From sequence record PZ445439.1: DNA of 64,000 nucleotides. One strand, 5' to 3'. The DNA comes from a phage. A program made the translations under genes and the position numbers. Shown here piece by piece: positions 22,226 to 62,618 of the stretch. Numbering within the stretch: position 1 is the first letter of the stretch; each line of letters opens with the position of its first letter. Under the pieces are notes generated by a model. The model worked only from the letters and a program-made list of their open reading frames with translations. It ran no database searches and was not told the DNA's origin.

Positions 22226-23190
22226 TGTATTCTTTAGAGGAATTTAATAATCAAGCAATAAACGCAGATTTCCAGCGTAATAATATGTTTAGCTGCGTTT
22301 TTGCGACAACTCCATCAACTAAAAGCTCTTCGTTGATAAGTTCAATTAGCAACTTTTCTTATAATAACTTGGGCCTAAATTCAGATTGGTTAGGATTGAC
22401 TCAAGGCGATATTAATCAGGGAATTACCACGCTAATTACTGCTGGCACACAAAAACTAATAAGAAAATCGGGAGTCAGTAAATATCTTATTGGTGCCATG
22501 AGCCAGCGTACCGTTCAGAGTTTATTGGGCTCATTTACAGTTGGTACATATTTAATCGATTTCTTTAATATGGCGTATAATTCATCTGGATTGATGATAT
22601 ATTCTGTAAAAATGCCAGAGAATAGATTATCTTATGAAACTGACTGGAACTATAACTCTCCTAATATTCGCATAACCGGGAGAGAATTAGACCCTTTGGT
22701 TATTTCATTCAGAATGGATTCAGAAGCTTGTAACTATCGTGCAATGCAAGACTGGGTTAACGCTGTTCAAGACCCAGTAACTGGACTGCGTGCTTTGCCA
22801 CAAGATGTCGAGGCAGATATTCAGGTTAATCTTCATGCTCGTAATGGATTACCTCATACTGCGGTGATGTTCACCGGATGCATTCCAGTGTCAGTGAGCG
22901 CTCCTGAGTTATCATATGATGGAGATAACCAAATAACTACATTTGATGTTACTTTTGCGTATAGAGTCATGCAGGCTGGGTCGGTTGATAGACAAGCTGC
23001 GCTTGAATGGCTTGAATCTGCTGCTATAAATGGTATTCAAAGCGTTCTTGGAAATAGTGGAGGTGTTACTGGATTATCTAATTCGCTTTCACGACTTAGT
23101 AGATTAGGAGGAACTGCTGGAAGCATTTCAAACATTAATACTATGACAGGAATTGTCAATTCGCAAAGTAAAATATTAGGAGCAATATAA
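22225..23190 (+). CDS. 54: Baseplate-tail tube initiator gp54 (321 aa)
   Basis: ORF track; size and synteny; terminator follows. Confidence 0.92.
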   Translation: MYSLEEFNNQAINADFQRNNMFSCVFATTPSTKSSSLISSISNFSYNNLGLNSDWLGLTQGDINQGITTLITAGTQKLIRKSGVSKYLIGAMSQRTVQSLLGSFTVGTYLIDFFNMAYNSSGLMIYSVKMPENRLSYETDWNYNSPNIRITGRELDPLVISFRMDSEACNYRAMQDWVNAVQDPVTGLRALPQDVEADIQVNLHARNGLPHTAVMFTGCIPVSVSAPELSYDGDNQITTFDVTFAYRVMQAGSVDRQAALEWLESAAINGIQSVLGNSGGVTGLSNSLSRLSRLGGTAGSISNINTMTGIVNSQSKILGAI

Positions 23191-23194
23191 CAAT

Positions 23195-23215
23195 GGGGAC
23201 CTTTCGGTCCCCATA
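23195..23215 (+). terminator. Rho-independent terminator after gene 54
   Basis: ggggacc-tttc-ggtcccc followed by atattttttt. Confidence 0.75.
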
Positions 23216-23219
23216 TTTT

Positions 23220-23510
23220 TTATTTACGGAATGAAATAAAAGCAGCAACTGAAGCAACTAAACTGTCTTCAATATAAACTTCAATTTTTACCGGAGCTTC
23301 TGACTCAAATTTACCTGTTACTACACCCTGAAAAATACTTTCAGTCTGTTCTGGCTTTGAAAAATTTTCAGAAGGAAAAATTCCGAACTTTTTATCTGTT
23401 CCAAAAATTTTGATAAATTCATCATAAACTGCTTCATTGAAAGCATTATCAGTGGGAATAACGCCTTCAACTACAAGTTCTTGACCTAAAAAGCGCAAAG
23501 AAGATTTCAT
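23220..23510 (-). CDS. Hypothetical protein (T4 alt.-3 position), 96 aa
   Basis: ORF track; ATG with GAGGA Shine-Dalgarno; early promoter upstream. Confidence 0.7.
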   Translation of the reverse strand: MKSSLRFLGQELVVEGVIPTDNAFNEAVYDEFIKIFGTDKKFGIFPSENFSKPEQTESIFQGVVTGKFESEAPVKIEVYIEDSLVASVAAFISFRK

Positions 23511-23533
23511 TTTGTGTTCCTCATGTTATGTCA

Positions 23534-23572
23534 GTAAGACTACTATAACATAACACGAGGGACTTGTAAACT
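23534..23572 (-). promoter_or_regulatory. T4-type early promoter (-35 GTTTAC, -10 TATAGT) driving the alt.-3-position gene
   Basis: Minus strand GTTTACaagtccctcgtgttatgtTATAGT; matches T4 early promoter -35 consensus. Confidence 0.6.
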
Positions 23573-25628
23573 ACATTTTGAACTTTTTAGACATTCCGTT
23601 GATGTTAACCAAAGAAGCCAAGATTTGAGAAACTTCGTTTTCCTCTTCTTTTGATTCTTCTACAAGGAATTGATTAAATCCAGCCATTGGACGAACTTCA
23701 CCAGTTTCCATTAGATGGTCGCCATCATATACCGATTCCTCTAATTGTTCAGAAGGAGGAACGATTGTACCTTCTATTAGATACTTGTTATAAGCAGTTT
23801 CTTTCATAAAGTACGTACTTACTTTATTAATCTTTAGTAAAATTCCACGCGGTAGAATAACTTCAGCTTCTGATGGAAATCCTGATAAATGACCTGGAAC
23901 GATAACTTTGATTCGCTCAGCTCCTTTAATTACCATACCCACGCTAGTTTCAGCATCTTCATTAGCATATGTAGAATGACTACCCATATGCATCAAATCT
24001 TCTGCATCAACGGAACCTTCTCCTTCACCAGAAAATACTGCGCCGGAATCATCTAGAGCCATATAGTTTTTACCATGCTCACCGAAGATATTTGGTTTAA
24101 GCGATGTGGATACGAAGTTCTTGAAATAGAACATTTTGTTTTCAATGTTATGACGCAAAGTTTTAAAGGTAACTTCTTGTCCACGGTAAAGTGTAGTTCC
24201 TGGAGGAAGAACTGATCCTTTGGCAAAGGCAGAATCCAACGTCTCGATGTGCTTAATAGCTCGTTCCATATATTCTTCACGGGTAGAATCTGGTTTACCC
24301 AAAAGGAACGAGTTCATTTCAACATATGAATCTGCACAATACTCTTCAATTACATCAGACTCAGCCTGAGTTAATCCTTTTGGAGTTACTTCGGTGCTTG
24401 CGTATTCGTATGCCTGGGCAGCAGATTCATTAATCAATTTATAAATGCCATTCATTACAAATTGAACAATAGCTGTCTTTTCATCTGGTGTAGCTTTAGA
24501 ACCTTTAACTAAATCATTGACAATTTTCTTAATAACATCAAAGCTATTAGAAATATTAATGTCAGCAAGATCGCTTAAAATTTTATCAGTTTTATAATCA
24601 AAGAATTCTTTATTCTTTAAATATTCTTGAGAACCTTGATATGTTATATCGCTCTGCAACTTGATAGATGGATCACGTAAACGCGCATGAGCCAGTGCAA
24701 TATGATTTCGGAAACTTTCTAGTTCATAATCGTTAGATTTAAAACGAGAAGCACTCCTCATACCACCGATAGCTCCTTTGCTGAAGTTTGACCCAACTTG
24801 AATAACACCAGAGTTCATTGGTCCTTCTGCTTTATATACCGGAACTTTAGATTCAAATTCCTGATACTTCTTAGCAGCGAAGCTATCGCCCTGAAGTGAA
24901 GCATCGACAGTAGAATATTGAGCTTGTGCTGCTAATCGACGACTGATTTTAGTTTTCTGAATAACAGCTTGATCAGTACGTTTATCATTTTCTAAAGCAA
25001 TAGAAGCAGCAACTGCGACAGCTTTAGGAACCGCGTCTCCTGTTTTAACGTCTACATAAACATCACCGACCTTTGATTCAACTTTTGTGAATAGCTCTGT
25101 TGAAATAGGAGGTACACCTGGAATGTCTTCTAATTTAGCATTTTTACGGTAAACCATAATATATGCATACTTTTTATCATAGTCCCAAATTTCCTTTAAG
25201 AGAACATATCGACCTGCTCCTTTAGTACGTACTAAACGGTCAGCAATAACTTGCATTTGACGAGCTGCGCCATTTGTTTTACTTTTTAGTACGCGGAATA
25301 AGCATGCGTCGATTTTATACTGTTTCATTGTTTGAAGAGCAGTATCAAAAACAGCATTAATGACGCCAATTGGATTTCCACCCAAGTTTCTAAGCTTAAC
25401 CAGCGATAATTTCTCGTTGACACCTATCATTACGATATGCATCATTTTGTCGCCTGGCTTAACGTTTTTATTTGTATCACCGCCAGAGGTGTATGTACAA
25501 AATCTAAATCCAGGAAGCACGCTTTCTTCGCCGGCTTGAATAGCAAAAATTTGTGGTATTTTATGCTTAGGATTTAAGTTAACAACCGGCGCCGAAGCGC
25601 CGTCAAATAATTCTGTAATAAGTTCCAT
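23571..25628 (-). CDS. Alt-like ADP-ribosyltransferase paralogue (685 aa)
   Basis: N-terminal ~230 aa highly similar to Alt; C-terminal region retains R (LYRGQ), STS (VSTSL) and E-x-E (EAEVILP) motifs. Confidence 0.85.
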   Translation of the reverse strand: MELITELFDGASAPVVNLNPKHKIPQIFAIQAGEESVLPGFRFCTYTSGGDTNKNVKPGDKMMHIVMIGVNEKLSLVKLRNLGGNPIGVINAVFDTALQTMKQYKIDACLFRVLKSKTNGAARQMQVIADRLVRTKGAGRYVLLKEIWDYDKKYAYIMVYRKNAKLEDIPGVPPISTELFTKVESKVGDVYVDVKTGDAVPKAVAVAASIALENDKRTDQAVIQKTKISRRLAAQAQYSTVDASLQGDSFAAKKYQEFESKVPVYKAEGPMNSGVIQVGSNFSKGAIGGMRSASRFKSNDYELESFRNHIALAHARLRDPSIKLQSDITYQGSQEYLKNKEFFDYKTDKILSDLADINISNSFDVIKKIVNDLVKGSKATPDEKTAIVQFVMNGIYKLINESAAQAYEYASTEVTPKGLTQAESDVIEEYCADSYVEMNSFLLGKPDSTREEYMERAIKHIETLDSAFAKGSVLPPGTTLYRGQEVTFKTLRHNIENKMFYFKNFVSTSLKPNIFGEHGKNYMALDDSGAVFSGEGEGSVDAEDLMHMGSHSTYANEDAETSVGMVIKGAERIKVIVPGHLSGFPSEAEVILPRGILLKINKVSTYFMKETAYNKYLIEGTIVPPSEQLEESVYDGDHLMETGEVRPMAGFNQFLVEESKEEENEVSQILASLVNINGMSKKFKM

Positions 25629-25631
25629 GAT

Positions 25632-27725
25632 TTATCCTTGAACGAACTTGTAAGGCATGTTTGTAATATCTATGCAAGACGCAATAATTCCAAGAGATGA
25701 TTCTACTTTCTGTTTAACGTTTGATGAAACAAATGATGCAAAGTCAACTCTGTCTTCTATTTCAATATCACCTGTCATTGCAACCAATTCACCAGTTTCC
25801 ATTAAATGGTCTCCATCATAGATTACCGATTCGGTGAGCTCTTCCGTGGTCATAACTTCAGCTTGAATGAGTTTTGTATTATTAGATGTTGTTCCGTCAT
25901 TATTAGAAGCATCAGTTATTTTATTAACTTTGACCATCAATCCACGCGGTAGAATAACTTCAGCTTCTGTTGCTATTCCGAGACTTCCTGGATATACAAC
26001 ATTAACTTTATGAGCTCCATCAATTGCCCATCCTATTTGAACTTTAACGTATTCAGGATTTTCTTTATACGCTCTTATTTCGTTTGGATTAATAGTTATT
26101 CCTTCTTCATTTTTATCAACTGTTAATTCATTGCGAGCTTCTGGTTCTAAAAGACCAATACCAGCATGTGTAATTCCAAAACGTCCAAAAATGATAGGAG
26201 TTAAAGAAGTAGATACAAAATTTCTGAAGTAGAACACTTTATTTTTAACTAGTGCTTCGTATATAGGAGCAGTCATACTTTGAGCACGATAAACTGTAAT
26301 GCCTTCCGGTATGCGGTCACCATTTTCAAAAGCTGAATCTAAATTATTTATAGCAGATTCAATTTCTTTTTCACTCATTACATCATATCGTTCTGGATTG
26401 TAACGACCTAAAAGAAGATTATTGATGTCAGTATATCCTGAACCACAATACTCTCTAATGCCGCGCTTTTGTGATGGAGTATATTTAGAACCATCACGGG
26501 CAATAGTAATATCAATCATTGGACCTGCACCAATTCCAGAAAAACTATAAATCATTCTTTTGAGGAATTTAGTTTTTGCTGCGTTCCAGGAATTTTTAGT
26601 CATTTCTTCCCAGACTTCATCTGGCTGCCCTTTACGAGTTTTATTATGTTTATCAAGCCAATTATCTTTATATTCTTCAAAGAGTTGATTAACAGCTGCT
26701 GCGTATTTCTCTAAACATTTTATTGAAGTAGTTGGTTCATTTTTAATCGCATTAAGAATTACATCTTTAATTTTTTCAGAAACTTCATTAACCTCACTTT
26801 TTGAAAAGAATTTATAGTCATAATGAAGTTCATCTGCGGTTCCTTCGGCAATAATTTTTGCTGCCTTAGTTTTAGAAGCTAATGAATTAATTCCAAGTTT
26901 CATTTCTTCTGCTTCGGGAATTAAAGGAGCGGTAGCAGGTTTATTGAAATTAGCTGCGGTAGATTCATATTTCTGGAATAATTCACTTTCAAATCTAGAA
27001 GATTCCAATGACTGACTTTGTGCAATTGCTCTACGGGAAATTTTAACTTTAACGATTACAGCTTGGTCAGAACGTTTATCATTTTCTTGTGCAATAGATG
27101 CAGCAATTGCCTCATTTTTAGTTACTTGAGCTCCAGTATCTTTATTGATATAAACATCACCGACCTTCGATTCAACTTTAGTAAAGAGCTCGGTGCTAAT
27201 TTCCGGAACTCCTGGAATGTCTTCTAGTGATACATTTTTGCGATGTATAAGAATATATGCATACTTTTTATCGTAATCCCAGAGTTCCTTAAGAAGGACG
27301 TATCTGCCACCTGAACGACTGCGGATAAGTCTATCAGCAATAAGTTGAATTTGACGAGCTTGACCAGCAGTTTTAGACTTAAGAATACGGAGCATACAGG
27401 CATCAATTTTATACTGACGCATCGTCTGCATCGCAACAGTAAAAACTGAATTGATGTAATTAATTGGGCTTGGACCGAGACCTTTTAATTTAGCAATTGA
27501 ACCTTTAGCAGTTAATGTAAAAGGAACAATATGCATCATTTTATCGCCCATCTTTAAATCGCGATTAGTATCACCTCCAGATGTATAGGTACATAAACGA
27601 AAGCCTGGTTGTTCAATTGCGTCATCAACATGAACTGAAAAAATTTGTGGTATTTTCTTCTTTGGATTTAAGTTTGTAATCGGAAGAGTAGTATCTTCGT
27701 CAAATAATTCTGTAATGAGTTCCAT
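25632..27725 (-). CDS. alt: Alt, capsid-packaged ADP-ribosyltransferase (about 697 aa from second ATG)
   Basis: N-terminus MELITELFDEDTTLPITNL matches recalled T4 Alt; R-STS-ExE motifs present; late promoter upstream. Confidence 0.92.
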   Translation of the reverse strand: MELITELFDEDTTLPITNLNPKKKIPQIFSVHVDDAIEQPGFRLCTYTSGGDTNRDLKMGDKMMHIVPFTLTAKGSIAKLKGLGPSPINYINSVFTVAMQTMRQYKIDACMLRILKSKTAGQARQIQLIADRLIRSRSGGRYVLLKELWDYDKKYAYILIHRKNVSLEDIPGVPEISTELFTKVESKVGDVYINKDTGAQVTKNEAIAASIAQENDKRSDQAVIVKVKISRRAIAQSQSLESSRFESELFQKYESTAANFNKPATAPLIPEAEEMKLGINSLASKTKAAKIIAEGTADELHYDYKFFSKSEVNEVSEKIKDVILNAIKNEPTTSIKCLEKYAAAVNQLFEEYKDNWLDKHNKTRKGQPDEVWEEMTKNSWNAAKTKFLKRMIYSFSGIGAGPMIDITIARDGSKYTPSQKRGIREYCGSGYTDINNLLLGRYNPERYDVMSEKEIESAINNLDSAFENGDRIPEGITVYRAQSMTAPIYEALVKNKVFYFRNFVSTSLTPIIFGRFGITHAGIGLLEPEARNELTVDKNEEGITINPNEIRAYKENPEYVKVQIGWAIDGAHKVNVVYPGSLGIATEAEVILPRGLMVKVNKITDASNNDGTTSNNTKLIQAEVMTTEELTESVIYDGDHLMETGELVAMTGDIEIEDRVDFASFVSSNVKQKVESSLGIIASCIDITNMPYKFVQG

Positions 27726-27748
27726 CATATCCTCTCTAGTGTTTATTC

Positions 27749-27756
27749 TATTTATA
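27749..27756 (-). promoter_or_regulatory. Late promoter TATAAATA (minus strand) upstream of alt
   Basis: Plus tatttata; about 24 nt upstream of alt ATG. Confidence 0.6.
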
Positions 27757-27761
27757 AAATT

Positions 27762-27779
27762 AAAGGCCCGAAGGCCTTT
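27762..27779 (-). terminator. Terminator after the gene 30 transcription unit (minus strand)
   Basis: aaaggcc-cgaa-ggccttt stem-loop; minus strand followed by AATTTTAT. Confidence 0.65.
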
Positions 27780-27966
27780 AATAATCTATTGGTAAGAGAG
27801 TACGATATATTTCAAACTTTGGACCTTTTTCATAGGCATCAAATGTTTCTGTGAATTTATTATAAGCATATGCATCTATAAATTCAATCATAATTTGTGA
27901 TACAGAAGTAGAAACATCTCCACCTTCTTTTTGAGCAACGACAATTGTTTCTAAGTAAGCTTTCAT
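27778..27966 (-). CDS. Hypothetical 62-aa protein between DNA ligase and alt
   Basis: ORF track; ATG overlaps gene 30 stop (ATGA); terminator hairpin at its 3-prime end. Confidence 0.55.
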   Translation of the reverse strand: MKAYLETIVVAQKEGGDVSTSVSQIMIEFIDAYAYNKFTETFDAYEKGPKFEIYRTLLPIDY

Positions 27967-29426
27967 AGACCAGTTACCTCATGAAAATCACCAAATACAT
28001 CCTCGAATGTATTAGCTTTAGTTTTATCTTCACGTAAACGAATCGCAATCGGAAGAAATAATTTAACGTAATCAGTGCGGCCATCAGATTTTAGCCAACC
28101 GTTGCATTCGCACTCTAGAATTTTTCCAATATAATAATTTTGGTTTTCCATAATGCGAGTACGGTCAAGTTCATGTGATTTTACACCGGCTTTATCTTTT
28201 AAGCCTGAACCAGCATTTACTTTAATTTTTCCACACTCTGATTCAAGAATAAATCCACCTGCTTTAGTAGGGTCTTTACGGTGAGGATAAATTCCTACAA
28301 TTTTTAAATCAACATCAATTACTTCTTTAAATTTATAGAGATTTTTTGAACGAGCATTTTCCCACAATCCATCGGTATTTTTGAGAATAATACCTTCAAG
28401 ACCTTGGTCAATATATTTTTTATAAATTACCTTAGCTTCATCTAGGTTATTTACTACCTGGTTTTCAATTAAAATTACTTTATCATATCCTGATGTCATT
28501 TGTTCTAGTTTAGAAAAACGTACATCATATTTTAAACGAAACGCCGGAAGACCGTATATTTCTACCAACGGGACATAATCCCAGACCTGAAACTTCATGC
28601 ATTTGGCTTCTTTTTCGGAAATGGTTCCTTTTAAGGATTTATTGGCGATTCCATTAGAAGCAGTACGAGATTCCGCTACTTCGGCGAATTCTTTAGCTTT
28701 ACTAATTTCAGGATAAGCATCAAAAAGAAAATCTAGGCCTTCTGGTTCCTTTTTAACTTGCTCATGGTATACCAATTCGCCATCAATTAACACACCTTCT
28801 GGATGAATCTGGCGGGCTTCAGCGGTCATTTTGATTAACTCTTCCTTAAGAAGATCTAATCCTAAATATTCATTGCCAGCTCGTGATAAAAGACGAACAT
28901 CATCTAATTCATCACCTCTAACTTCAGCAAAACACCGAGCCCCATCAGCTTTTAACTGGGCAAAGGCTGGAAATTTGATATTCTTATTAATGCCCTTTTC
29001 ATCATAAGAACTTGCGAGCATTTGAGGTTGTTCAGGAATTAAACCTGGCCAAACTTTGTTTGCAATAGATACTGAAGCACCGCATTCAAGGTCTCGCATC
29101 ATCACCCGACGCAAAACTTCAACATCATCTTTTTTACCGTCAGTAATATATCCAGTTAATTCCTCAATTGCCGCATTTCCAGTCAATTTCCGAGTAGCTA
29201 ACGTGAATTCAATGAAGTCGAGCATATCTGTAAGAGTCAACATTCCAAAACTCTGGGTAGCAATACCAGGTTTAGGCCATTTCTTGATATAATACTGTAA
29301 CCCACGAGAATAAGTCAGACGATATACTCGTTTAAGCAATTCATTATCTTTATTCTTTTCAAGAATTGCTTGCTTCTGCTTAGTTGAACCAATAGATGCT
29401 ATTTCGTTCAGAATTTTAAGAATCAT
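27963..29426 (-). CDS. 30: ATP-dependent DNA ligase gp30 (487 aa)
   Basis: ORF track; N-terminus and size match recalled T4 DNA ligase. Confidence 0.95.
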   Translation of the reverse strand: MILKILNEIASIGSTKQKQAILEKNKDNELLKRVYRLTYSRGLQYYIKKWPKPGIATQSFGMLTLTDMLDFIEFTLATRKLTGNAAIEELTGYITDGKKDDVEVLRRVMMRDLECGASVSIANKVWPGLIPEQPQMLASSYDEKGINKNIKFPAFAQLKADGARCFAEVRGDELDDVRLLSRAGNEYLGLDLLKEELIKMTAEARQIHPEGVLIDGELVYHEQVKKEPEGLDFLFDAYPEISKAKEFAEVAESRTASNGIANKSLKGTISEKEAKCMKFQVWDYVPLVEIYGLPAFRLKYDVRFSKLEQMTSGYDKVILIENQVVNNLDEAKVIYKKYIDQGLEGIILKNTDGLWENARSKNLYKFKEVIDVDLKIVGIYPHRKDPTKAGGFILESECGKIKVNAGSGLKDKAGVKSHELDRTRIMENQNYYIGKILECECNGWLKSDGRTDYVKLFLPIAIRLREDKTKANTFEDVFGDFHEVTGL

Positions 29427-57896: not shown

Positions 57897-60800
57897 ATGG
57901 CTACTTTAAAACAAATACAATTTAAAAGAAGCAAAACCGCAGGTGCACGTCCTGCTGCTTCAGTATTAGCCGAAGGTGAATTGGCTATAAACTTAAAAGA
58001 TAGAACACTTTTTACTAAAGATGATTCAGGAAATATCATCGACTTAAGCATTTCTGCTGGCGGTAGTATCAGTGGAAATATCACTCAAACTGGTGATTAT
58101 TTACAAAATGGAACATATAATCTTAATGGAAACCAGTTTGTTTATGCAGGAAAATATATTGAATTTTTACCTAAAACTGCTGGTAATGGTGCTTGGGCAA
58201 ATCAACACCTAAATAAAGCTCCTATTTTTACGGATTTAAGTTCAACTACTTCCGTTTCAGAATACCATCCGCTAATTAAGCAGCGTTATAAAGATGGGAC
58301 TTTTTCAGCGGGTACATTGGTTGCTGAAGGAAGTTTTAAGATTCATTACATCAATGAATCTGGGGATTCGAAATATTGGACTTTTAATCGTAATGGTAAT
58401 TTCCAAGTTGACACAGGCGATTTATTTGTCAGCAAAGGTAATATTTCCGCTTCAGGCAATATTAATTCAGCTACTGGAATAGTTTCTGCTCCACAGATTA
58501 ATACAAAAACCATAGTTTTTGATACAAAGGCATTCGGACAATACGATTCGCAGTCATTAGTTCAATATGTTTATCCTGGAACAGGTGAAGAAAATGGTAT
58601 AAACTATCTTCGTAAAGTTCGAGCTAAATCAGGCGGAACTATTTACCATGAAATCGCTTCAGCTCAAACCGGTAAGAATGATGAAATTTCTTGGTGGACT
58701 GGAAATTCGCTTACTACTAAATTAATGGGTCTTCGTAATGATGGCGCAATGGTATTACGTCGTTCACTTGCTATTGGCACAATTACCGCTGATGAAAATA
58801 CTAACAACTATGGTTCTCCTACTCCAATGGGAGAAAGATATATTGCTTTGGGTGATGCTGCAACCGGTTTAAAATATATTAAGCAAGGTGTTTATGATTT
58901 AGTAGGTAATTGGAATTCTGTTGCTTCTATTACTCCTGACAGTTTCCGCAGTACTCGCAAAGGTTTATTTGGACGTTCAGAAGACCAAGGCGGAACCTGG
59001 ACAATGCCTGGAACGAACGCTGCTCTCTTGTCTGTTCAAACCCAGGCAGATGTGAATAACGCAGGCGATGGTCAAACCCACATTGGATATAATTCTGGCG
59101 GTAAATTTTCCCATTATTTCCGCGGTAAAGGCCAAACCAACATTAATACGCAGGAAGGTATGGAAATTAACCCTGGTATTTTGAAATTGGTAACTGGCTC
59201 TAATAACGTACAGTTTTATGCTAATGGAACAGTATCTTCAATACAAAGAATTAAATTTGATAACGGATTAGTTCTTACTGGTGCTAGACCTGATGGTATT
59301 CAACTTGATGCGCCTACATCAGTAGATGGCACTAAAACTATACTGTGGGCTGGTGGTACTCGCGCAGGTCAGAATAAAAGTTATGTATCTATTAAAGCGT
59401 GGGGTAATTCATTTAACGCATCTGGCGATCGCACTCGTGAATCAGTTTTTGAAGTAGCTGATGGACAAGGTTATTATTTTTATGCGCAACGTATAGCTCC
59501 TGCACCAGGTTCAACAACTGGAGTAATTCAATTTAGAGTTGCTGGAGCATTATTAACCGGTGGTGGTATTACATCATCTGGTTCTATTGTTACTGAATCA
59601 AGTTTAGTTGCAAATAATGGATTATCTGTAAATGGTCAGGCTAAATTTGGTGGAACGGCAGATGCATTAAGAATTTGGAACGCTGAATATGGTGCTATTT
59701 TCCGTCGTTCAGAAGCATCATTACATATTATCCCGACTCCTAAAGATGCTGGTGAAAGTGGTGGAATAAGTAATCTCCGCCCGCTTAGTATTAGCCTTAA
59801 TAATGGTATGGTGCAAATGCGTCATTCTGTTACGTTAGGCGATGATGGTGCAGGCGGTAATATGGTGACGGTTGATAATGATTCTAAAGTTATGGTAATG
59901 ACGACTAATAGCCGTATTAGTCCTAACTTCCGTATGCAAATTGGACAGTCGTCTTATATTGATGCTGAATGTACTAATGCTGTTAGACCGGCTGGCGCAG
60001 GTTCTTTTGCTTCGCAAAATAATGAAAATGTTCGTGCTCCGTTCTATATGAATATTGATAGAACTGATACTAGTACATATGTTCCAATTGTTAAACAGAG
60101 ATATGTGCAAAATAATAGTTGCTATTCTATCGGTACTTTAATTAATGGTGGTAATTTTAGAGTTCATTATCATGAAGGTGGTGATGGCGGTTCTACTGGC
60201 GCGATTATAAAGGATTTAGGTTGGGAATTTAATAAAAACGGTGATTTTTACTCTCCTGGTAAATTAGGTGCTGGTAATGTTCGTATTGGTACTGATGGTA
60301 ATATCACGGGGGGTTCATTACCTAACTTTGCTAACTTGAACTTGACATTAGATCGTAAAGTCAATACCCGAATGGTTTCTTATTCAGGTACTGGCGGTTG
60401 GTACAAATTAGCCACTGTAACAATGCCACAATCCACTTCAACCGTCACATTCGAAATTGCTGGTGGTAATGGCTATAATGTTAACACCCCACACCAATGC
60501 GTTACTTCGAAAATTGTTTTAAGAACTTCGAACAATAACCCGAAAGGTATTAATGCTGTTGTTTGGTCGATGGATACCGATCAGGGTATTAAGAATGTTG
60601 CAACGGTTAATACATCAGGCGATGTTTATGACATCTATGTAAACGTTGGTACTTATGCTCAGGCGTTAGCAGTTTCTTATTATGCTACTCCTAATGCTAC
60701 CATTAACCAGGTATTTGCAACGGACCAACCGGGTGCAACAGAAACTGCGGTTGAACTTCCTGAGACGGCTATTCAAGGACAGGTTGCTAGTGTTCTGAAT

Positions 60801-61805
60801 AACTTGGCTCTTACCCCGAACGGTGTAAAACGTTATGAAGCCGATTCTGAAATAGCTATTAATAGCCAAACTGGCATTCGTATTAGAAGCAACAGCGATA
60901 AAACTGGTTCTGTTGCTACAATGCTACGAAATGATGGTGGTAGTTTTTATATTCTGTTTACAGATAAAAATGCCACCGATGGCGCAGCAACTGTTAATGG
61001 TGATTGGAATAGTAAACGTCCTTTCGCAATTAACTTAACAACCGGCGAAGTGCTAATGAATAACGGCATAGCTGTTCGCAGCGCTGCTTTATTCTATAAT
61101 AGCATAAACGTCAAAGATAATGGTTCTATTAACTTTGATAAGTCCGGAGCTAACCCAAGAAATATGAGAATATTTCATGCTGGCGATGGCACTCGTGGTA
61201 ATCGCATTGAAATTGCCGATGAAACTAACTATATTGCTTACTTCCAAAAATTACCTGGTGGTCAAAACCAAGTTTCATTCAATAGCGCTACACTTTCTGG
61301 ATTAACACAGTGTAATCAATTTGGTGTTAACACAACAAACGCACTTGGTGGAAACAGTATAACATTTGGTGATACCGATACTGGTATTAAGCAAAATGGC
61401 GATGGATTATTAGACATATATGCGAACAACGTACAAGTGTTCCGTTTCCAAAACGGTGATTTGTACTCATACAAAAATATAAATGCTCCAAACGTTTATA
61501 TTCGTTCTGATATTCGTTTAAAATCCAACTTTAAGCCTATCGAAAATGCACTTGATAAAGTTGAAAAACTTAACGGTGTCATTTACGATAAGGCTGAATA
61601 CATCGGTGGAGATGCAATTGAAACTGAAGCGGGTATTGTGGCTCAAACGTTACAAGACGTTTTACCAGAAGCTGTCCGTGAAACAGAAGACAGTAAGGGT
61701 AATAAAATACTCACTGTTTCTTCTCAAGCCCAGATTGCTCTTCTAGTTGAAGCTGTGAAAACACTTTCTGCTCGTGTAAAAGAACTCGAATCTAAACTTA
61801 TGTAA
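57897..61805 (+). CDS. 37: Long tail fibre distal subunit gp37 (1302 aa), T2/T6 type with C-terminal intramolecular chaperone (autoproteolytic) domain
   Basis: ORF track; C-terminal ~100 aa (...[29 protein letters not shown]...ELESKLM) resembles the chaperone domain of fibre/endosialidase proteins. Confidence 0.9.
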
Positions 61806-61835: not shown

Positions 61836-62618
61836 ATGGCAATTGTAGGTGTTCCTGGCTGGATTGGTGAATCTGCCGTGAATGAAACTGGACAACGTTG
61901 GATGGATGCTGCAATGAGAGCAGTCCGTGTTTCAGTTCCTGGTTGGATGAGCTCAATGGCTGGGCAATCTAAAGAGATTCATTATAGCATTGGTGCTAGT
62001 AATTCTTATAATAAAGACACATTAATAAACTGGATAAAAGCCCAAGGAAGTACTCCTGTTGTTATTACTATTACAGGAAATATTGTTTCTCAATCTACTG
62101 GTGTTCCGTGTCTGGATTTCCCTAGTTCGTTGACCAATGCATATGTTACGTTGATCATTAACTCTGGCGTGACTGTCTATGGACGTGGGGGTAATGGTGG
62201 TAGTAACGCTGCCGGTGCTGCTGGTGGTAACGCAATTAATAATGGCATCGGTACACGCTTGCGTATTACGAATAATGGTGCAATCGCTGGCGGCGGCGGC
62301 GGCGGTGGCGGCGGTAACAGGGGTAAACTAATATTTGGTGGTGGCGGTGGTCGCCCATTCGGTGCTGGTGGGTCTTCCTCTCATATGAGTTCCGGTGCAA
62401 CTGCTGGTACTATTTCCGCTCCTGGTAAAGGATCTGTTGGTGAGGGGTCTCTTAGCGCATATACAGGCGGTGCGGGCGGTAACGTTGGTGCTGCTGGAGG
62501 AAGATGTAATACCCAAGGTAACGGTACAGAATATAACGGCGGCGCAGCTGGTAAAGCTGTTACCGGTAATGCTCCAACTTGGACTAAAGTTGGTACAATA
62601 TATGGTTCAAGAGTATAA
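61836..62618 (+). CDS. 38: gp38 receptor-recognising adhesin, T2/T6 type with glycine-rich motifs (260 aa)
   Basis: ORF track; conserved N-terminal region plus C-terminal poly-Gly segments separated by variable stretches. Confidence 0.88.
   Translation: MAIVGVPGWIGESAVNETGQRWMDAAMRAVRVSVPGWMSSMAGQSKEIHYSIGASNSYNKDTLINWIKAQGSTPVVITITGNIVSQSTGVPCLDFPSSLTNAYVTLIINSGVTVYGRGGNGGSNAAGAAGGNAINNGIGTRLRITNNGAIAGGGGGGGGGNRGKLIFGGGGGRPFGAGGSSSHMSSGATAGTISAPGKGSVGEGSLSAYTGGAGGNVGAAGGRCNTQGNGTEYNGGAAGKAVTGNAPTWTKVGTIYGSRV
62289..62315 (+). repeat. (GGC/GGT)9 trinucleotide tract encoding nine consecutive glycines in gp38
   Basis: Direct reading of ggcggcggcggcggcggtggcggcggt. Confidence 0.9.

Follow-up and report, generated by a model that had tools for sequence, protein, structure and literature searches.

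The window analysed here is a stretch of 64,000 nucleotides of phage DNA (record PZ445439.1). This study concerns its alt locus, where two genes for Alt-family ADP-ribosyltransferases (ARTs) lie in tandem: alt, whose product is called AltA below, and alt.-2, whose product is called AltB. The gene order between 23.2 and 28.0 kb is that of the alt region of phage T4, with gp29, gp48 and gp54 on the plus strand followed by alt.-3, AltB, AltA, alt.1 and gp30, the DNA ligase located beyond alt.1, on the minus strand. The features of the locus are collected in Table 1.

No frameshift or internal stop codon was found in the open reading frame (ORF) of either AltA or AltB, and the AltA stop codon is followed after a gap of 3 nt by the AltB start (GGATAAATCATG). 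The longest ORF for AltA extends from 25632 to 27728 and encodes 698 aa beginning with MMELITE; translation from the second ATG, at 27725, gives 697 aa. This second ATG agrees with the annotation of T4, RB32 and RB14, and lies 7 nt from a Shine-Dalgarno sequence, GAGAGGA.

Table 1. Coordinates of genes, protein segments and sequence signals at the alt locus, numbered from the first letter of the window (AF2, AlphaFold2; pLDDT, predicted local distance difference test score; dN/dS, ratio of nonsynonymous to synonymous substitution rates).
Feature	Position	Strand	Remarks
alt (AltA), Alt-family ART precursor, 697 aa	25632..27725	-	intact ORF; phrog_802; PF03496
alt.-2 (AltB), second Alt-family ART precursor, 685 aa	23571..25628	-	intact ORF; phrog_802; PF03496; counterpart of RB32/RB14 alt.-2
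AltA N-terminal domain, residues 1-235, including ITE-6	27021..27725	-	99-100% identical to T4 Alt N-terminus
AltB N-terminal domain, residues 1-235, including ITE-6	24924..25628	-	67% identical to AltA; AF2 pLDDT 84, alpha/beta fold; dN/dS 0.016
AltA ART catalytic module, residues 411-632, ends LTE630-632	25830..26495	-	Y479-R-A-Q (R480), S505-T-S507, E587-A-E589
AltB ART catalytic module, residues 415-631, ends LEE629-631	23736..24386	-	Y481-R-G-Q (R482), S507-T-S509, E587-A-E589; Foldseek
AltA predicted C-terminal propeptide, 65 aa after LTE632, with YDGDHLMETGE	25635..25829	-	aligns with the 63-aa T4 propeptide; 97% identical to T4
AltB predicted C-terminal propeptide, 54 aa after LEE631, with YDGDHLMETGE	23574..23735	-	L-x-E motif; low pLDDT
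T4-type late promoter box TATAAATA	27749..27756	-	21-24 nt upstream of AltA start
GC-rich, terminator-like hairpin AAAGGCCTTCGGGCCTTT	27762..27779	-	overlaps alt.1 stop codon; annotated terminator at the same place in phage Lutter
Upstream 9-bp direct repeat CTAAAAAGT	25281..25289	-	about AltB codon 114; one deletion end in T4 and Lutter
Downstream copy of CTAAAAAGT	23582..23590	-	about AltB codon 680; other deletion end in T4 and Lutter
Sigma-70/early-type promoter TTTACA-17-TATAGT with TG extension, for alt.-3	23542-23570	-	promoter scan; between AltB stop and alt.-3
alt.1, 62 aa	27778..27966	-	upstream neighbour, left boundary of the alt cassette; 100% identical to T4 Alt.1; Pfam Phage_blade
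alt.-3, 96 aa	23220..23510	-	downstream neighbour, right boundary of the cassette; 99% identical to T4 Alt.-3; Pfam DUF5498

The two proteins showed 41% identity overall (BLASTP, E = 1e-162). Identity was 67-68% over residues 1-235, 14-20% in the centre (about residues 240-410), which is effectively unalignable, 36-37% in the ART domain and 42-44% in the last 55-65 residues, the C-terminal tail. The number of synonymous substitutions per synonymous site (dS) between the two genes was 0.9-1.5.

The catalytic arginine, both serines and both glutamates were invariant across 24 aligned, diverse homologues spanning 43-96% identity, and a profile search of the PDB aligned the arginine and the E-x-E motif with the catalytic arginine and the (Q/E)-x-E motif of a solved C3-like toxin and BECa. 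The Pfam model ADPrib_exo_Tox (PF03496) matched AltA with 129.2 bits and AltB with 72.2 bits, at a cutoff of 23.4. The family phrog_802 ('Alt-like RNA polymerase ADP-ribosyltransferase') covered both from end to end: residues 1-696 of 697 in AltA (E = 3e-273) and 1-685 in AltB (E = 1.4e-255). No NCBIfam model matched AltA or AltB, and the PDB holds no solved Alt structure.

The initial annotation, made from the letters of the window, had placed two full-length Alt-type ORFs at these coordinates without giving their strand, which is minus. It had described about 230 highly similar N-terminal residues followed by divergence, and intact R, S-T-S and E-x-E motifs in both copies. Each of these statements was borne out, and neither copy is affected by the frameshift or the loss of catalytic residues for which it had proposed a check.

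In the AF2 model of AltB (mean pLDDT 75.8), an alpha/beta N-terminal domain (residues 12-215) is followed by a helical region modelled with confidence (250-470) and by the ART domain (480-625). Disorder is limited to residues 1-11 and 629-685, the latter with pLDDT below 50; these two segments are the predicted propeptides described below. Foldseek searches with the model returned the Vis toxin, C3bot, CDTa, VIP2 and CPILE-a with a probability of 1.00. For single-domain toxins the template modelling (TM) score on the target was 0.58-0.65; Foldseek E values were 2e-7 to 1e-4. From motifs and fold we infer that AltA and AltB are E-x-E ARTs of the C3/VIP2/iota fold class, presumably arginine-directed.

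A T4-type late promoter box, TATAAATA, lies just upstream of AltA. Both alt genes are probably transcribed from it, since AltB begins 3 nt behind AltA and lacks a separate promoter. In the window as a whole the box was counted 19 times, as against 8.1 occurrences expected. A second box was seen on the minus strand at 26345-26352, inside the AltA coding sequence. Lying about 720 nt upstream of AltB, this box may yield a late transcript of AltB only, or it may be a chance match. On the other side of the late promoter, the hairpin AAAGGCCTTCGGGCCTTT would set alt.1 apart from the late alt unit. At the opposite end of the cassette alt.-3 is probably a separate, earlier transcription unit, since an early-type promoter sits between it and the AltB stop codon.

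T4 Alt is a head-core protein, present in about 40 copies; it is a substrate of the prohead protease gp21 and enters the host by injection together with the DNA (PMC5694885; PMC9026906). By mass spectrometry, T4 Alt loses six residues from its N-terminus, at ITE-6, and 63 from its C-terminus, at LTE-619 (PMC5694885). Both AltA and AltB begin with MELITE, with ITE at residues 4-6, and at the aligned C-terminal gp21 position AltA has LTE630-632 and AltB LEE629-631. In both proteins the L-x-E motif is followed by an invariant SV(I)YDGDHLMETGE, and residues E631, Y634, D635, G636, D637, E641, G643 and E644 (AltB numbering) were invariant in the 24 homologues. The extreme C-terminal tail, a predicted propeptide, is thus conserved and not a freely divergent end. 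The predicted mature proteins have masses of 70.1 kDa (AltA) and 69.2 kDa (AltB). As far as sequence can tell, the locus supports a route by which two ARTs are co-expressed late, loaded into the head, trimmed at either end and injected.

The corresponding slot in T4 contains alt, of 682 aa (NP_049811), and two short ORFs, alt.-1 (61 aa) and alt.-2 (67 aa), in agreement with the initial annotation. T4 Alt.-1 is 95% identical to residues 1-56 of AltB, and T4 Alt.-2 is 96% identical to residues 62-116, while both are only 56-62% identical to T4's own Alt. Being nearer to AltB than to T4 Alt, the two short ORFs are therefore best described as AltB-type remnants and not as a partial copy of alt. 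They correspond to phrog_23015 and phrog_15247.

Alignment of the DNA located two lesions in T4. The first is a 1-nt deletion in an A-run at about codon 56, which splits the frame; the second is a 1,699-bp deletion between two 9-bp CTAAAAAGT repeats, through which codons of about 117 to 680 are gone. The deletion in phage Lutter has the same end points as that in T4. The window is not in the T4 state: the A-run is intact and the full 1,699 bp are present between the CTAAAAAGT repeats.

The two-gene state is ancestral, and T4 a derived form in which AltB was destroyed, because Dhakavirus phages have a full-length gene of the AltB type (B-type) in the same slot. The T4 record describes its short ORFs as an 'old duplication of the first part of alt', and the RB32 record carries the remark 'apparent insertion in alt.-2'. 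Both descriptions were rejected, because the CTAAAAAGT repeats flank the missing segment and the Dhakavirus B-type gene is full length; the polarity indicated is a deletion in T4.

A megablast search with positions 23100-28100 of the window matched 544 phage records, nearly all of them Tequatrovirus. The best matches (KMB22, RB27, RB32, T2 and others) were 97-98% identical, and 356 of the 544 Tequatrovirus-like records covered at least 80% of this two-gene stretch. The window is a T2/RB32-like Tequatrovirus sequence with a complete two-gene alt cassette. Elsewhere in the window, the ORFs in the gp37 and gp38 positions (57897-61805, 1302 aa, and 61836-62618, 260 aa) are of T2-type and not T4-type size; such sizes, of a long distal fibre and a gp38 adhesin, fit the T2/RB32-like identity.

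A tblastn search recovered full-length genes of the AltB type, at least 80% identical, from 402 phage records, in 393 of which the identity was 95-99%; the 90% cluster of the closest database relative of AltB has 772 members. Of the Tequatrovirus records searched, about two thirds to three quarters encode an intact B-type enzyme, which T4 lacks. AltA is at least 80% identical to its counterpart in 320 phage records, and 99.7% identical to the alt product of phage KMB22.

Pairwise comparison of AltB among six phages gave dN/dS values of 0.02-0.06 at dS values of 0.11-0.26. By region, dN/dS was 0.016 in the N-terminal domain (N-domain), 0.082 in the centre, 0.049 in the ART domain and 0.027 in the tail. 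For AltA, dN/dS was 0.05-0.09. Strong purifying selection acts along the full length of both alt genes. With the ORFs intact and dN/dS at 0.02-0.09, a pseudogene or frameshift in either copy was rejected.

Proteins P0009 and P0018, encoded on the same 14,051-bp Logan contig, appear to come from a lineage with diverged versions of both alt genes. The A-like protein is 88% identical to AltA in the N-domain and 60% in the ART domain; the B-like protein is 92% and 73% identical to AltB in the same parts. Both effectors therefore vary outside the sequenced isolates also.

Overall, AltA is 70% and AltB 41% identical to T4 Alt. Equal similarity of the two to T4 Alt, which the initial annotation had named as the mark of a trivial duplication, was thus not found. 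A trivial recent duplication was also rejected on the 41% identity between AltA and AltB, their dS of 0.9-1.5 and the presence of a Dhakavirus orthologue of each type.

The identity of AltA to T4 Alt varies by segment. Amino acid identity was 99-100% over residues 1-240, 32% in the centre, 65-69% in the ART domain and 97% in the last 65 residues. The dS values between the window and T4 were 0.14 for the N-domain, 0.08 for the tail and 0.08-0.19 for five flanking genes, as against 1.1-1.4 for the centre and ART domain; both ends of AltA and all the flanking genes share 97-100% identity with T4. Residues of about 240-632 of AltA (25830-27020) are thus an allele different from that of T4, and AltA is not a simple orthologue of T4 Alt. 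Both alleles are common: 320 records are of the window type, and 212 fall in the band of 60-80% identity, which comprises the T4-type allele plus the Dhakavirus alt genes. Each allele at alt occurs both with an intact and with a deleted AltB, so that all combinations exist: phages C2-3 and W143 have a T4-type AltA together with AltB, Lutter a window-type AltA with a remnant, and T4 a T4-type AltA with a remnant.

The ART module of AltA (25830-26495) is 93-95% identical, at the amino acid level, to that of alta of the Dhakavirus phage JS10. When the window was compared with JS10 (L006, 5001-7085), dS was 0.64 for AltA residues 411-478 (91% amino acid identity) and 0.40 for residues 479-632 (94%), as against 2.8 for the N-domain (46% amino acid identity), 3.6 for the centre and 2.1 for the tail. 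In the flanks, dS ranged from 1.7 to infinity for gene 30, alt.1, gp54 and gp48, and was 0.95 for alt.-3. By these values the ART module of AltA, and it alone, has a much more recent common ancestor with its JS10 counterpart, and this indicates transfer between the genera. Purifying selection alone was rejected as the cause of the high ART identity, since dS is 0.40 in the module and greater than 1.6 in adjoining segments of the same gene.

The N-domains of the A-type and B-type proteins are 67% identical to each other within Tequatrovirus and 65-70% within Dhakavirus, and 42-46% between the genera. Between AltB and the altb product of JS10, identity was 42-45% for the centres, 59% for the ART domains and 61% for the tails; against any A-type effector, the identity of AltB was 34-37%. 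The N-domains thus group by genus, whereas the effector parts follow paralogue type. This pattern could arise in one of two ways: homogenisation of the N-domains inside each genome, or movement of effector cassettes onto the N-domains already resident there.

Natural hybrids between the two types were found. The complete genomes of ECML-134 (NC_025449; L013, 3652-5712) and SCS4 have a single alt gene of 686 aa, in which A-type sequence extends to about residue 145 and B-type sequence (97-100% identical) begins at about residue 150. Among metagenomic proteins, P0003 to P0006 have B-type effectors with increasingly A-like N-domains; in P0006 the crossover lies at about residue 225 and the gene is in the A position next to alt.1 (Logan contigs L011 and L012, 6001-8061 and 5030-7090). 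Both contigs end 29 nt past this gene, and an assembly chimera is possible there; it is excluded for ECML-134. That the A/B hybrids are assembly artefacts only was rejected, because the complete genomes of ECML-134 and SCS4 hold a comparable hybrid with a different crossover point. The tandem copies thus recombine with each other, and the differing crossovers are as expected from unequal crossing-over.

Phage fDHCT2 (OR427838; L005, 6001-12261) has three tandem Alt paralogues, of 694, 681 and 707 aa. The middle gene encodes a third effector type, with an ART domain 34-40% identical to both the A-type and the B-type; its N-domain shares 88-90% identity with the one in the adjacent B-type protein. 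Overall, the locus is modular, with a genus-specific N-domain and a C-terminal propeptide that flank an exchangeable cassette of centre plus ART. Exchange in the style of polymorphic effectors is shown by the sharp differences in dS between segments and by the natural A/B hybrids, and the groupings of N-domains and effectors are incongruent.

The N-domain was also followed beyond these phages. The Pfam family PF26846 (Tevenvirinae_ADPRT) has precomputed matches on homologues 88-98% identical to the proteins of the window; weak Pfam scans of the N-domain and of the centres returned nothing credible. Among 1.84 billion proteins, sequence searches recovered 74 representatives of the N-domain (clustered at 50%), always N-terminal and nearly always linked to an ART. 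The exceptions are 4 of the 74, distant members without a Pfam match in the remainder. These relatives (P0182, P0184, P0187 and P0188) are 347-1142 aa long, and their remainder could be a non-ART cargo or a very divergent one. By fold, matches to the N-domain were found in BFVD, with TM scores of about 0.5, at the N-termini of large proteins that come from unrelated myoviruses and are uncharacterised; some of these proteins carry zeta-toxin, deaminase or ParB-like domains. A general role of the N-domain as a cargo-loading module is, on these data, a lead and not a result.

Several known systems are related to the cassette. The likeness to T4 Alt extends to the slot, between alt.1/gene 30 and alt.-3/gene 54, to the architecture, to the R-S-ExE residues and to the ITE-6 and C-terminal LTE motifs; the difference is that T4 has one functional copy and the window two. 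The alt.-2 of RB32, RB14 and T2 is the same gene as AltB, by amino acid identity (98-99%), position and length (685 aa), and differs from it in nothing material. JS10 and fDHCT2 likewise have tandem paralogues in the same slot, in JS10 alta with an A-type and altb with a B-type effector; their N-domains differ from those of the window, with only 42-46% identity, and group with each other.

Among bacterial proteins, C3 exoenzyme, VIP2, iota Ia, CDTa and the Vis toxin, of the R-S-E clade, have the same catalytic fold and motifs, at an identity of only 15-20%. Alt differs from these toxins in its phage-specific N-domain, its long helical centre, its protease-removed propeptides and its delivery by the phage head and not through a binary toxin pore. 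T4 ModA and ModB, as described in the literature, are ARTs of the same broad clade and occur in the same phage group; they are small, expressed early and unpackaged, and lack the Alt N-domain and propeptides.

The reading that we favour, with a probability of roughly 70%, is that the locus is a two-gene alt cassette encoding two late, trimmed and injected ARTs, most likely with different targets. AltA and AltB would be transcribed late from one TATAAATA promoter and made as precursors which, from their translations, would have masses of 78 and 76 kDa. By homology to T4 Alt, both would be loaded into the prohead core via the shared N-terminal region. The gp21 protease would then trim both, after ITE-6 and after the C-terminal L-x-E (E632 in AltA and E631 in AltB), as the mass spectrometry of T4 Alt leads one to expect. 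The resulting enzymes, of about 70 kDa, would be injected with the DNA and would ADP-ribosylate arginines of host proteins.

The sets of host proteins modified by AltA and AltB would most likely differ, because the centres are unrelated, the ART domains are 36% identical and the A and B effector lineages have been kept separately across genera. The proposal of the initial annotation, two injected enzymes with potentially different host targets, is thus plausible, since the gp21 motifs are kept, the predicted late promoter is shared, dN/dS is low and the effector types are conserved across genera.

Several points weigh against this reading. Literature searches for packaging, cleavage, injection, activity and targets of AltB returned no experimental evidence and annotation-level remarks only, and the N-domain of AltB shares no more than 67% identity with that of the protein proven to be packaged. 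Arginine specificity is read from the E-x-E motif only. Constraints on codon usage could have inflated the dS contrast, although within the same gene the neighbouring segments have reached saturation. In addition, AltB is dispensable in some lineages, having been lost in T4 and Lutter, and so is the A-type effector, which was lost in ECML-134.

The first two of these points also suggest a different role for AltB, as an active ART that is not packaged and acts late in the producing cell, in the manner of a third Mod-like enzyme: the literature searched yielded no proteomic detection of AltB, and its N-domain differs from that of T4 Alt at a third of the positions. AltB nevertheless keeps the MELITE start with ITE-6, the whole N-domain at a dN/dS of 0.016, and the C-terminal propeptide with L-x-E and YDGDHLMETGE, and it would be transcribed together with alt from the late promoter. 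In ECML-134, moreover, a B effector on an A-type N-terminus is the sole alt gene, which fits a packaged cargo. This role is rather unlikely.

The shared catalytic motifs and overall architecture, together with the loss of either effector in natural isolates, would also be expected if AltA and AltB were redundant duplicates which modify the same targets (for example Arg265 of RNA polymerase alpha) and add dosage or robustness only. ART domains that are 36% identical and centres that cannot be aligned do not suggest redundancy, nor does the maintenance of A-type and B-type effectors as distinct lineages in both Tequatrovirus and Dhakavirus. Strong purifying selection on both genes is unexpected for redundant copies over that time span, and we consider redundancy improbable.

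Decay of AltB, either as a pseudoenzyme or as a gene heading to the state seen in T4 and Lutter, which carry a destroyed copy, is very improbable given that about 400 records have an uninterrupted 685-codon ORF for it, with amino acid identities of 95-99%, that dN/dS is 0.02-0.06, including 0.049 in the ART domain, and that R482, S507, S509, E587 and E589 are invariant.

Beyond the favoured reading of two injected ARTs, a wider one can be put forward tentatively. The alt slot of the T-even phages may be a polymorphic injected-effector locus, in which a genus-adapted head-loading N-domain and a protease-removed C-propeptide, as constant ends, enclose cassettes of centre plus ART that are swapped from one phage genus to another and from one tandem copy to the other; AltB would be a second injected enzyme with its own target, and the N-domain fold a possible general loading module in unrelated myoviruses. 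We regard this as possible and less than probable. If it is true, the target of AltB might be a defence or translation component rather than RNA polymerase, and T2-like phages would begin infection with a wider first-strike repertoire than that of T4 as the laboratory model.

The tandem alt pair itself is already known; it has been annotated since 2006 and is the usual state in the close relatives of T4. The records of RB32 (2006) and RB14 annotate alt.-2 as similar to alt, that of JS10 annotates alta and altb, and the RefSeq name for both genes is 'Alt-like RNA polymerase ADP-ribosyltransferase'. Nolan et al. (2006) described alt.-1 and alt.-2 of T4, as well as a full-length duplicate of alt in phage 44RR, and Jin et al. 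(2014) reported alt duplications in Ac42, JS98 and Bp7. Four points appear to be undescribed in the literature searched: how the T4 deletion arose and its polarity, the existence of two catalytic alleles at alt, the passage of the ART module between genera, and the natural A/B hybrids.

T4 is the model for ADP-ribosylation of host proteins by phages, yet at the alt locus it is a degenerate exception, and for alt itself there are at least two catalytic alleles, which are very different. Studies of host takeover and of ADP-ribosylation targets that use only T4 may therefore overlook some of the injected enzymes of its close relatives, and could also overlook ways in which T2, T4 and T6 differ in their sensitivity to host defence systems. 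The A/B hybrids, the T4-type and T2-type alleles and the inter-genus ART transfer are natural domain swaps with which target choice and head loading may be mapped.

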